Below are positions 41,551 through 43,438 of a stretch of DNA of 64,000 nt, in pieces. The notes under the pieces were generated by a model. It saw only the letters and a program-made list of their open reading frames with translations, was not told the origin of the DNA and made no database searches. How positions within the stretch are numbered: the stretch's first letter is position 1; every line of letters begins with the position of its first letter. A program made the position numbers and the translations under genes. Where the stretch lies: the sequence record PQ014731.1; one strand, 5' to 3'. This DNA is from Escherichia phage VB-EcoM-WM.

Positions 41551-41690
41551 ATAAAGAATATAACTAAAATAACTAAATAATAAAAAATAAAAGATCTAGT
41601 ACTTATGGTACTAAAGTACATATACTTAACTTATGTAGAATATACTAGATCCTAAGTACCATGTTTTAAATTTATTACTTACTATTGATA
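41551..41690. repeat. AT-rich region with inverted repeats (possible origin/DNA unwinding element)
   Basis: Very AT-rich; palindrome TAGTAC-ttatg-GTACTA and AGATCTAGTA...TACTAGATC inverted repeat. Confidence 0.4.
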
Positions 41691-41990
41691 GTGTCGGCCC
41701 TTCATTGGCACTCGCCTACGGGGGGCGAGATGCCGGGCCTCCATAGTGCACACAATAACAGGAGTGCATACATGCAGGACTGTTAACATGTGTGGGAGCG
41801 AAGCGATAGCGCAGGCAAAAGGCCGAGCACTGATGTGGACCACCGACGAAAGCTTGCCAGCGTCGTAAGGAGTCGGTTGAGAGTCTCCCGCGCGAGCTTG
41901 GATGAAGTTTATGTGTGGAAACGGACAAGAAGGCCCCTAAATCGCTCCACAGCTGTGTAAACTATATCAGGTAAGGCAATCGCACCAGTT
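41690..41990 (+). ncRNA. GC-rich structured non-coding element A (candidate ncRNA)
   Basis: ~300 bp of higher GC with no convincing ORF (only a 70 aa antisense ORF), multiple stem-forming inverted repeats; strand not established. Confidence 0.3.
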
Positions 41991-42054
41991 TGATAGAAAA
42001 GCTCGTTACAAAGCGATACAGTGAGTTTTTCTATAACTTGAAGAGGAGGCGGCT

Positions 42055-42633
42055 ATGGGTTCACGCAAAGATGACCGTGAAAAGATTGCAAAACGTTATC
42101 AGAATGAAGAACAGATGGAGAAAACTTTCAAGTGGAAGCCAGGTTTCCAGCGTAATCATTCTAACGCTCGTGATCGTAAGCATCCGGATAAGTGGCTAAC
42201 ACCGCCAAATGATGGCATGCAGGTTGGTGATGAGAAGGAGCTATCGCCTGGAAAAGATGGCAACTACATTCGCACTAAGGACGCTGGTCCAAAGGATGAC
42301 AGCTATCTTGTAGATAAGGCTCTTGATGGTATTGATGTAGATGTTGACACCACACGGAACTTTTTTCTTGGGTGGTATCGCACAGGTTTTTTCGACATCA
42401 AGGCCATTCGTCGTGTTTGTGATATTAAAAAGTCTGCATATGATGACGACTCGTTACATCGCACCCTGAGGCAATATTCAGAAAGATATGGTCATCCGGT
42501 TATCACTCTTGACGATGTTGACGAAGTGATGTATCATGCAGAGGTTGTTGCAGGCAGATTTGGTGATGCATATCTTGATATCCTTTCTGCAAACGATGAG
42601 GTAATGTTGAATAAGATTTACTACGAACGTTGA
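42055..42633 (+). CDS. hypothetical protein
   Basis: 192 aa ORF with GAGGAGG RBS. Confidence 0.5.
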   Translation: MGSRKDDREKIAKRYQNEEQMEKTFKWKPGFQRNHSNARDRKHPDKWLTPPNDGMQVGDEKELSPGKDGNYIRTKDAGPKDDSYLVDKALDGIDVDVDTTRNFFLGWYRTGFFDIKAIRRVCDIKKSAYDDDSLHRTLRQYSERYGHPVITLDDVDEVMYHAEVVAGRFGDAYLDILSANDEVMLNKIYYER

Positions 42634-42643
42634 GGAGAGCTTA

Positions 42644-42832
42644 ATGAACAATCCGGTAGCAAAGAACTGTAATAAGTTCAACAAGTCTGCAATTCACACT
42701 GACAGGAAAAAGAGCTGGTCACCGGACATTGACGAGGAGCTTGAGAATTACTTTGAAGATCTGGTTACCAATGCAGGTGAGGTTGCGATTAAAGAATACG
42801 CAGACAGGAGGGATAAGGCCGGAATCTGTTGA
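42644..42832 (+). CDS. hypothetical protein
   Basis: 62 aa ORF. Confidence 0.35.
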   Translation: MNNPVAKNCNKFNKSAIHTDRKKSWSPDIDEELENYFEDLVTNAGEVAIKEYADRRDKAGIC

Positions 42833-42857
42833 CAAAAATAATGTTACCTGATAAGAT
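42829..42857 (+). promoter_or_regulatory. sigma70-like promoter
   Basis: TTGACA-17 nt-TAAGAT. Confidence 0.45.
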
Positions 42858-42908
42858 CTGCAATATGATGTGATACAATTTTAACTTACGAGGTCTACAG
42901 GTAATGCT

Positions 42909-43151
42909 ATGTTTAAGGTTAAGCTCGTTTTCCGTTCCATGAATGAGGATTATTTAGAAGATGAAGGTGAATTTCGTGCACTAGATGATGCAATAGATTT
43001 TGCCAACGACTTAGCTTGTATGAACACAGGTTATGGGTTGTGTTGTTGGGACGGTGGTATTCAGATCGGTGATAGCAAAATCTTCTACTTCTACCCTGAG
43101 CCGGATAACAAACAAATTAAGTATGTTTTATTTATTTGTGCTTTACAATGA
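42909..43151 (+). CDS. hypothetical protein
   Basis: 80 aa ORF. Confidence 0.4.
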   Translation: MFKVKLVFRSMNEDYLEDEGEFRALDDAIDFANDLACMNTGYGLCCWDGGIQIGDSKIFYFYPEPDNKQIKYVLFICALQ

Positions 43152-43159
43152 GGTTGTTT

Positions 43160-43438
43160 TCGTGTATCATGATGAATATCCAATTTAAAGATGAATTTGA
43201 TGGCTTTATCTCCGGATGCTTTGAAACAGGGTTCGGAGAATGCTGAGTTCCCTTAGAGGGCTTGATAGTGCACCACACTTAAAATGGTAGGGGCAGCCAG
43301 CACATGACGATGTGACCCCAGCCAACCTGTAATAAGGTCGAGCCAAAGCGCGGTAATGGGTCTCTGGTAACCCACTTGTTGGGTCTTGCTGGTCCAGGAC
43401 GCTGGGCAAGTCGCAGGGAATACCACCCTGCGGCGAAC
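43160..43438 (+). ncRNA. GC-rich structured non-coding element B (candidate ncRNA)
   Basis: ~280 bp of higher GC; overlapping ORFs in several frames on both strands (non-coding signature); strong hairpin GCAGGG..CCCTGC; strand not established. Confidence 0.3.

Follow-up and report, generated by a model that had tools for sequence, protein, structure and literature searches.

We analyzed a 64,000-nucleotide (nt) stretch of Escherichia phage VB-EcoM-WM (sequence record PQ014731.1; this whole stretch is the window) and found that region B, a GC-rich segment at 43247-43438 on the + strand, encodes a phage-specific structured RNA outside the catalogued families. The RNA is confined to phages among the genomes searched, is horizontally spread, folds on the sense strand around a near-invariant junction and lies inside early and transfer RNA (tRNA) transcription units. 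A first-pass annotation of the window, made from its letters alone, had singled out this segment together with a second one, region A (41694-41990), as GC-rich, poor in open reading frames (ORFs), rich in stable hairpins and possibly encoding novel noncoding RNAs (ncRNAs) beside the tRNA cluster; it proposed an Rfam scan and a search for covariation in relatives as checks. The rise in GC is present in both regions (0.58 at 41700-41899, 0.52 at 41800-41999 and 0.52-0.525 at 43200-43499, with flanks of 0.31-0.43), both hold only short overlapping ORFs in several frames, and the hairpin given as an example, GCAGGG..CCCUGC, is found at 43413-43431. The bounds drawn for region B were right for 43247-43438, but 43160-43246 falls outside the GC-rich part and contains a small conserved ORF. 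As for structured RNA, the proposal is strongly supported for region B, which combines the lack of an Rfam family with covariation and co-orientation with the tRNA genes, while for region A the evidence points neither way.

The three-way-junction core of the region-B RNA and its periphery

The many stable hairpins cited as evidence of structure did not stand up, as the whole-region minimum free energy (MFE) is no better than that of dinucleotide shuffles on the two strands of region A (z -1.3 and -0.9) or region B (z -1.6 and -1.4). Since the MFE is unremarkable, the single sequence is no proof of structure and comparative data are needed. These revealed an invariant heart in the region-B RNA, a three-way junction of ∼45 nt. 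Its closing helix, P2, carries a bulged G and runs directly into P3, whose hexaloop has the consensus GURNNA; a 3-nt joiner, CNA, leads on to the short helix P4, and a GGUAA joiner leads back to P2. In the window, the parts are as follows.

43247-43438, + strand: region-B RNA, GC-rich part
43318-43366, + strand: three-way-junction core, 49 nt (67.2 bits with covariance model R1; pair counts below come from 62 distinct cores)
43321-43324 with 43357 and 43359-43361, + strand: helix P2, with G43358 bulged
43325-43338, + strand: helix P3, ACCU GUAAUA AGGU
43339-43341, + strand: joiner J3/4, CGA
43342-43351, + strand: helix P4, GC CAAAGC GC
43352-43356, + strand: joiner J4/2, GGUAA

The model tested consists of five pairs in P2 (with the second nucleotide after GGUAA bulged), P3 as ACCU/AGGU, two pairs in P4, and the joiners CNA and GGUAA. 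Across the 62 distinct, gap-free 49-nt cores, 89.6% of cells were paired, compared with 75.4 ± 1.0% when the 3′ partners were shuffled, and when the partners were slid by 1-3 columns only 27-40% of cells were paired. The covariation score was 0.366 versus 0.100 in shuffles; none of the 500 shuffles reached the observed value for either measure. Helices P2 and P4 show three to five Watson-Crick pair types. Within P2, pairs 5-43, 6-42, and 7-40 are 98-100% paired with three to five pair types each, and pair 26-33 of P4 occurs as CG (53), UA (4), GC (3), and AU (1) with one mismatch. The first pair of P3, 8-21, is AU in 60 cores and GC in two. P2 also contains G-U pairs (GU in 16 cores at 4-44, UG in eight at 7-40), which indicates that selection acts on the + strand RNA rather than on the DNA.

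R1, which was built from the 62-core alignment, retrieved 103 copies in 98 sources, tandem copies included. It also scored a second site in the window (35641-35688, + strand, 19.9 bits), which lies antisense inside a 427-aa ORF (35230-36513, minus strand) and which we set aside as probably due to chance. Likenesses to the GUAAUA hexaloop of the 23S ribosomal RNA GTPase centre, to the ‘GGUAA’ of RNase P, and to twister and hammerhead ribozymes were rejected on account of mismatched order or layout, and the corresponding Rfam models are silent.

The Rfam scan (Rfam 15, 4227 covariance models) placed no family in either region. At gathering thresholds, the whole window yielded one group I intron and five tRNA matches, all of them outside regions A and B. 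Permissive scans (E ≤ 10) of 41400-43950, 43150-43500, 41685-41995, and a T4-like copy of the element returned spurious matches of 12.7-18.6 bits or nothing for region A, region B, short sub-windows, and the T4-like copy. Even at this threshold the group I model RF00028 has no match in region A or B, in agreement with the earlier statement that group I elements are absent from both. A combination of ARAGORN and Rfam found tRNA or transfer-messenger RNA genes in the window only at 43931-44654, with none called at the region-B core, whose topology is two hairpins off P2 and not a cloverleaf.

Lineage-specific hairpins decorate the core. In the window, which carries the vequintavirus-type RNA, we assigned the following peripheral parts.

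43250-43289, + strand: 5′ domain, with hairpin CCC UUAGA GGG at 43250-43260 and then CUUGAUAGUGCACCACACUUAAAAUGGUA at 43261-43289
43290-43319, + strand: hairpin X, directly 5′ of P2, GGGG [CAGCCAG] CACAU GACG AUGUG [A] CCCC
43362-43438, + strand: 3′ domain, made up of the tail CUCUGGUAA and three hairpins
43371-43383, + strand: 3′-domain hairpin CCCA CUUGU UGGG, deleted in locus L094
43385-43410, + strand: 3′-domain GACG-loop hairpin CUUGC..CCAG GACG CUGG..GCAAG
43412-43432, + strand: terminal hairpin CGCAGGG AAUACCA CCCUGCG, absent from relatives of the L037 type

The 5′ domain (hairpin and 29-nt stretch) is almost invariant between the window type and the sister-clade L037 type, despite differences in hairpin X and in the 3′ tail; no antisense target of its conserved single-stranded stretch was found within the window. 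Hairpin X of loci L024 and L038-40 reads GGAAC [..GAGGG] CUACG GACG CGUAG [G] GUUCC, so that relative to the window four of the five inner pairs are altered on both sides while the GACG loop is kept. T4-like phages have a hairpin X of their own, which shows analogous compensation from CCUCA/UGAGG to CCUUA/UAAGG and from GGGAA/UUCCC to GGGAG/CUCCC. Pairing is likewise maintained in the GACG-loop hairpin of the 3′ domain (CUCAG/CUGAG in L036 versus UCCAG/CUGGG in the window). T4-like phages carry a conserved 3′ hairpin of their own, GYGCCAWGGAAUGGCCC, between the core and the ribosome-binding site of vs.8. Compact versions measure ∼85 nt in phage Ivi and ∼115-125 nt in the jumbo and ∼46-70-kb types; an outer stem, itself covarying (GUUGUGAC/GUCACAAC versus GUUGUGAA/UUCACAAC), seems to close them.

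Distribution and genomic setting of the core

The core is present in 984 phage records, T4 among them. A BLAST search with 43180-43470 gave full-length matches only in 118 vequintaviruses, and a further ∼870 records matched over the 40-48-nt core alone (window ∼43318-43361) at 88-95% identity. Most of these core-only records are T4-like phages of Escherichia, Shigella, Klebsiella, Yersinia, Salmonella, Citrobacter, and Enterobacter. Scans of IMG/VR and metagenomes with degenerate patterns added 84 distinct flanked variants. The further lineages include a sister clade of the window phage (contigs of 118-141 kb), the Klebsiella phages Pylas and KpCHEMY26 (70 kb), ∼46-kb contigs whose element-bearing stretch matched only 70-kb and 146-151-kb phages, 146-151-kb phages of E. 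coli and Shigella, ∼47-kb Klebsiella phages, the Pseudomonas phage pf16, marine and soil contigs, and ∼350-kb jumbo phages with flanking tRNAs that match Salmonella phage 7t3.

We considered a host origin, or mimicry of a host RNA, and rejected both: the core has no match in 5,426 E. coli genomes, and a strict pattern has none in the genomes of 185,579 bacterial and archaeal species (one genome each). A relaxed pattern of 17 specified bases gave 40 bacterial matches, which is the number expected by chance for 596 Gb; these lack P3 complementarity and apparently lie in coding-like sequence. The single plasmid match, a 137.6-kb E. coli ‘plasmid’ (CP057073.1) that matches the region-B RNA at 94.6%, is as large as a vequintavirus genome and is presumably one deposited as a plasmid.

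T4 has its core between denV and vs.8 (67.3 bits with R1). Its RefSeq record (NC_000866) starts the vs.8 coding sequence (CDS; 64253-64912) inside the 5′ hairpin of the RNA and reads through the core (locus L153 2355-2413, T4 ∼64854-64912). Other T4-like records place the vs.8 start later or extend denV across the core, and the alignment of the PHROG family profile begins only at residue 19 of the shorter annotated vs.8. The vs.8 annotation of T4 therefore probably needs correction. Throughout the T4-likes, the core sits in the spacer before vs.8 in sense orientation, whatever the upstream gene. There is one core per genome, or a tandem pair in a few (L027 5091-5137, L031 9135-9181, L098 477-523, and L013 1508-1536; example GCCUGUAAUAAGGCCAGUCCGCGACGGUAAGGGG); the second core is more divergent and lies ∼110 nt downstream of the first, or ∼500 nt in L013.

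The element keeps company with tRNA genes. In all 44 tRNA-bearing loci that we fetched, the nearest tRNA lies on the strand of the element; in several loci the nearest tRNAs are upstream of it. Jumbo-type and L086 contigs have the tRNA at a distance of 48-62 nt, and most ∼46-kb-type and related contigs at 134-360 nt, with two reaching up to 1185 nt; the spacing is 520-577 nt in the vequintavirus type and ∼6 kb in T4-likes. In jumbo contigs, a tRNA ends 3-10 nt before the RNA, and a tRNA-like unit comes after it. Some ∼46-70-kb Klebsiella and E. coli phage contigs (L018, L020, L022, L071, and L077) hold arrays of tRNA-sized units with stems GAGCAUUG...CAGUGCUC, followed by UUAUCGUUGUG; ARAGORN does not call these units as tRNAs, and the region-B-type RNA is one of them.

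What brackets the element depends on the lineage: promoter-like boxes, tRNAs, or a terminator. The downstream genes vary similarly and are unrelated, being vs.8 in T4-likes, phrog_3330 in vequintaviruses, tRNAs or tRNA-like units in the jumbo and ∼46-70-kb types, and others elsewhere. In the window, region B lies within an early stretch rich in sigma-70-type promoters, with the following features around it.

43142-43170, + strand: promoter-like site upstream of region B, TTTACA-17-TATCAT, 10 of 12 matches
43169-43246, + strand: small ORF MMNIQFKDEFDGF... / MMNIQFKDEFDGFISGCFETGFGEC, upstream of the GC-rich RNA and annotated as a CDS in phage JLBYU08
43439-43467, + strand: promoter-like site directly after region B, TTGACA-17-TAAAAT, 11 of 12 matches, with TG; serves the gene at 43496-43834
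43931-44654, + strand: tRNA cluster (Arg, Tyr, Ser, one atypical, Thr, and Met), co-oriented with region B and beginning 575 nt downstream of the core

No terminator was found between the two promoter-like boxes. The L037 sister clade has a TTGACA-17-TATACT box (11 of 12, with TG) immediately before the RNA and a second, TTGACA-17-TAAACT at 2905-2933, equivalent to window 43439-43467, so that the RNA is bracketed by both. Relatives keep the KDEFDGF motif of the small ORF, of which the L037 clade retains only MKDEFDGF* ahead of its promoter-like box. Phage Ivi has a promoter-like box between the RNA and the next gene, and in pf16 the element lies between a stop codon and a Rho-independent terminator annotated by the depositors, with the next gene having its own annotated promoter.

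Vequintavirus genomes (rV5/FV3-like E. coli myoviruses) are 96-98% identical to the 2.5-kb stretch around both regions, and the window belongs to this genus. In JLBYU08, the neighbourhood begins with genes for an RNA ligase, an AAA-ATPase, and a phosphoesterase, followed by a 116-aa ‘transcriptional regulator’ and small hypothetical ORFs, and continues with a ‘putative regulatory protein’, seven tRNAs, spanins, and the large terminase. Eighteen records titled ‘Campylobacter phage’ have >90% identity to this Vequintavirus locus.

Possible roles of the region-B RNA

We consider it evenly balanced that region B is a stand-alone, trans-acting stable ncRNA that binds, through its junction, a partner conserved among the hosts. 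Such an RNA would fold independently and act much as the orphan stable RNAs found in phage tRNA clusters do, with its near-invariant junction nucleotides contacting a partner conserved across Gammaproteobacteria and beyond. Such a partner might belong to the machinery of translation, tRNAs, or transcription, as a protein or an RNA, or it might be a small ligand. That unrelated phages have a near-identical core implies both horizontal transfer and a conserved cellular partner.

The closest parallel is with the T4 RNAs rnaC and rnaD (species 1 and 2), phage-encoded structured RNAs of ∼120-140 nt with no assigned function that are cotranscribed and co-oriented with tRNA genes. Like these, the region-B RNA occurs inside phage tRNA clusters and in their orientation, and its compact versions fill tRNA-like slots in tRNA arrays. 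However, the region-B-type element of T4 itself lies ∼6 kb away from rnaC and rnaD, and R1 run with filters off over T4 62500-74500 found only the denV-vs.8 site, with nothing at rnaC or rnaD reaching E ≤ 10. In addition, rnaC has a tRNA-like 3′ half, which the region-B RNA lacks, judging by ARAGORN at the window core. The likeness to rnaC and rnaD thus appears to be one of lifestyle and not of sequence. GOLLD and ROOL are likewise orphan structured RNAs, often phage-borne and located beside tRNA genes, and they run to hundreds of nucleotides. The region-B RNA differs from both in its ∼45-nt core, in its smallest full versions of ∼85-120 nt, and in having no Rfam match to either. Region B is akin in kind to the orphan structured RNAs of phage tRNA genes, such as rnaC, rnaD, GOLLD, and ROOL, and is a new family in sequence and fold. 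We found no description of the motif in the literature by gene name, topic, or literal core sequence, subscription journals being outside the scope of this search.

If real, the region-B RNA is among the most widely distributed uncatalogued structured RNAs found only in phages, occurring in ∼2% of deposited phage genomes and spanning Tevenvirinae, Vequintavirinae, 146-151-kb phages, jumbo phages, Pylas-like phages, ∼47-kb Klebsiella phages, a Pseudomonas phage, and environmental contigs. Its presence in T4 makes genetics and biochemistry immediately feasible, and its partner may expose a new site of contact between phage and host, linked to tRNA biology. The family also offers a comparative handle on the old question of what stable RNAs do in phage tRNA clusters, and it corrects existing records, namely the start of T4 vs.8, the extended denV of some genomes, and small ‘hypothetical proteins’ in vequintaviruses.

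Several observations weigh against this picture of a stand-alone folded RNA. The search pattern itself fixed many core positions (the P3 pairs beyond the first and most joiner nucleotides), and their invariance is therefore partly an effect of how the sequences were found; the BLAST matches at 88-95% identity show the conservation of the core independently of the pattern. A generic hairpin abutting P2 is found in 20 of 31 clusters and in 18 of 31 upstream control windows, which leaves only the lineage-specific compensation in support of hairpin X. Pseudoknot pairing of the hairpin X loop with the 3′ tail averages 5.94 bp versus 5.92 bp with shuffled tails, and none of the 31 clusters reaches p ≤ 0.05; the loop-tail complementarities noted by eye (CCAG/CUGG, GAGGG/CCCUU, CUCCGG/CCGGAG, and CGGA/UCCG) are no longer than with shuffled tails and were dropped. 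The terminal hairpin of the window copy has no U-run, and the terminator scan lists no terminator after it. Lastly, the T4-like element always lies directly 5′ of the vs.8 ribosome-binding site and is followed by a conserved extra hairpin, some T4-likes hold tandem copies, which like the leader position is typical of cis-regulatory leaders and riboswitches, and the pf16 layout of an aptamer and then a terminator also fits transcription attenuation.

These last points bear on a less probable reading, that region B is a cis-acting 5′ leader, either a riboswitch aptamer or a protein-binding operator, which controls downstream translation or termination. In the T4-likes, the conserved 3′ hairpin between the core and the vs.8 start stands beside a weak Shine-Dalgarno sequence, the tandem cores of L027, L031, L098, and L013 recall some riboswitch classes, a terminator directly follows in pf16, and a highly conserved junction amid variable helices is what a ligand pocket usually looks like. 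Three-way-junction riboswitches, for example of the purine class, similarly have compensating helices around a near-invariant junction and occasional tandem copies, and some lineages place the region-B element just 5′ of a ribosome-binding site or terminator. What we found of the hallmarks of a riboswitch is a conserved fold supported by covariation, and not a coherent set of downstream genes, an expression platform common to all lineages, or an Rfam riboswitch match; a terminator follows only in pf16. The downstream gene may be vs.8, phrog_3330, a tRNA-like unit, or another ORF, and the element also occurs between tRNAs. In the window, L037, and Ivi, moreover, the next gene is set apart from the RNA by a promoter-like box, and that of pf16 has its own annotated promoter.

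An improbable alternative is that region B is a processive antitermination element like HK022 put, which would alter RNA polymerase and let it read through structured tRNA arrays and terminators. The put RNAs are phage RNAs that act as folded transcripts in early operons, and the placement of the region-B element is compatible with such a role: it always lies in an early or tRNA transcription unit, in sense orientation and often shortly after a promoter-like box, it immediately precedes the terminator in pf16, and it shares the orientation of tRNA arrays. A universal partner such as RNA polymerase would also explain why the core is conserved across hosts. However, the put architecture is two stem-loops and has no known likeness in sequence or layout to the three-way junction of region B, the tRNAs nearest to the element are upstream of it in several loci, and T4-like genomes contain only a single copy, or two in tandem in a few cases. 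We regard it as quite unlikely that region B is a self-cleaving ribozyme or a processing signal that cuts polycistronic early or tRNA transcripts. The compact junction with its near-invariant joiner nucleotides and the position inside tRNA arrays at tRNA-like spacing would suit this role, and phage settings have repeatedly yielded new ribozyme classes, but no Rfam ribozyme model matches even at E ≤ 10 and joiners of 0, 3, and 5 nt do not fit the hammerhead core.

That regions A and B code for protein in an unusual frame or genetic code, or have no function and are GC-rich debris, seems very improbable, in keeping with the first-pass annotation, which had taken both to be non-protein and had named coding in another frame or code as what would overturn this. 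In some GenBank records, region A does carry hypothetical proteins of 40-56 aa and the 5′ edge of region B a protein of 32 aa, the cluster of a relative includes a tRNA annotated as ‘tRNA-Stop(tta)’, and the T4 RefSeq record reads vs.8 through the core. On the other side, region A has stops in all six frames, no 3-nt periodicity in its substitutions, and stretches that are invariant where a homologue of 83% identity should show synonymous variation. Region B undergoes compensatory pair changes, and the N-terminal extension of vs.8 is unannotated in other T4-likes and lies outside the PHROG profile, which begins at residue 19 of the shorter protein. 

More speculatively, the region-B core could be the binding pocket of a new functional class of RNA (a riboswitch, ribozyme, or decoy) exchanged horizontally among unrelated lytic phages, a possibility that we hold tentatively. 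In T4, such an RNA would have gone unnoticed within the annotated vs.8 gene. As a decoy, it may target a universal bacterial machine, for example the ribosome, RNA polymerase, or an enzyme that processes or cleaves tRNAs.

Region A and the neighbouring features

Region A is unrelated to region B: R1 has no match in it, and a 9-mer common to the two regions is not significant. Its features and those before it are as follows.

41043-41393, + strand: gene for a 116-aa winged helix-turn-helix (wHTH) protein of the ‘replication initiation protein’ type (phrog_12838, E 1.3e-75; DUF6945, HTH_36)
41465-41550, + strand: four palindromic 22-nt iterons (TGTCCG-N-CGGACA; repeat family D1), spaced 21, 21, and 22 nt
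41551-41690, + strand: AT-rich tract (GC 0.31 at 41500-41699)
41694-41990, strand not assigned: region A, a conserved noncoding GC-rich element (alignment of 11 homologues)
41696-41739: 5′ hairpin of region A, invariant, GGCCC..GGCACUCGCC..GGCGAGAUGCC GGGCC
41767-41794: second stem of region A, CAUACAUG..CAUGUGUG

Region A occurs only in 118 Vequintavirus records (88-96% identity) and in one IMG contig (83%); the adjacent wHTH gene is found in the same number of GenBank phage records, 118, and a search of IMG/VR by way of the wHTH protein gave no deeper homologues of region A. At this position, sister-clade phages carry different genes and show no GC peak. Coding potential, read-through included, was rejected: in addition to the stops in all frames, the 77 variable sites are spread 29/25/23 over the codon phases. 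Some blocks, 41697-41745 for one, do not vary even in the homologue of 83% identity, which implies that the element is under selection. Covariation is clear for region B across many phage lineages; region A has no power to show it, and only two of its 107 predicted pairs have double changes. The RNAalifold consensus fold is better than that of column shuffles on both strands (z -3.1 on +, -2.5 on -). The sole individually significant hairpin, at 41696-41739, is all Watson-Crick and folds as DNA on either strand (z -3.6 on +, -3.3 on -), and the promoter scan shows no promoter-like site before region A.

By its sequence, the array at 41043-41690 looks like an iteron origin or an operator array, having an initiator gene, repeats at the spacing of the helical turn, and an adjacent AT-rich tract. 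Since region A directly follows these, a DNA-level origin element is an equally good reading of it, and we are roughly evenly divided between a genus-specific ncRNA or long leader and a DNA element associated with an origin or operator. Narrowly put, that region A is not an RNA gene and forms a DNA-level part of an origin or operator module, for example a signal of the priming or single-strand-initiation type, seems to us a little short of an even call. It would account for the position after the initiator-like gene, four iterons at about two helical turns, and a 31%-GC tract, for a hairpin equally stable as DNA on both strands, for the missing promoter, and for a distribution that matches the wHTH gene and stops at sister phages with different genes at the site. 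Against it stand a length of ∼300 nt, long for such an element, a consensus fold somewhat better on the + strand, and one stem that is U-G on the + strand in the window and C-G in relatives; the palindromic iterons could equally be repressor operators. The iteron origins RK2 oriV and RSF1010 oriV have AT-rich and GC-rich flanks or single-strand initiation hairpins, and the order there is the same as here: initiator gene, about four iterons, AT-rich tract, and GC-rich hairpin segment. Region A is much longer than the GC-rich segments of these plasmids, and the putative phage initiator is only a 116-aa wHTH protein.

Within the tRNA cluster, the atypical tRNA at 44400-44498 has a long variable arm and is called ‘tRNA-???’ by ARAGORN, with a 4-base anticodon (atcc). 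Its equivalent in JLBYU08 is the one annotated as tRNA-Stop(tta), and it may be a suppressor or Lys-like tRNA. The group I intron (RF00028, 92.7 bits) lies farther downstream at 46925-47149, in a stretch that JLBYU08 annotates as the large terminase gene.

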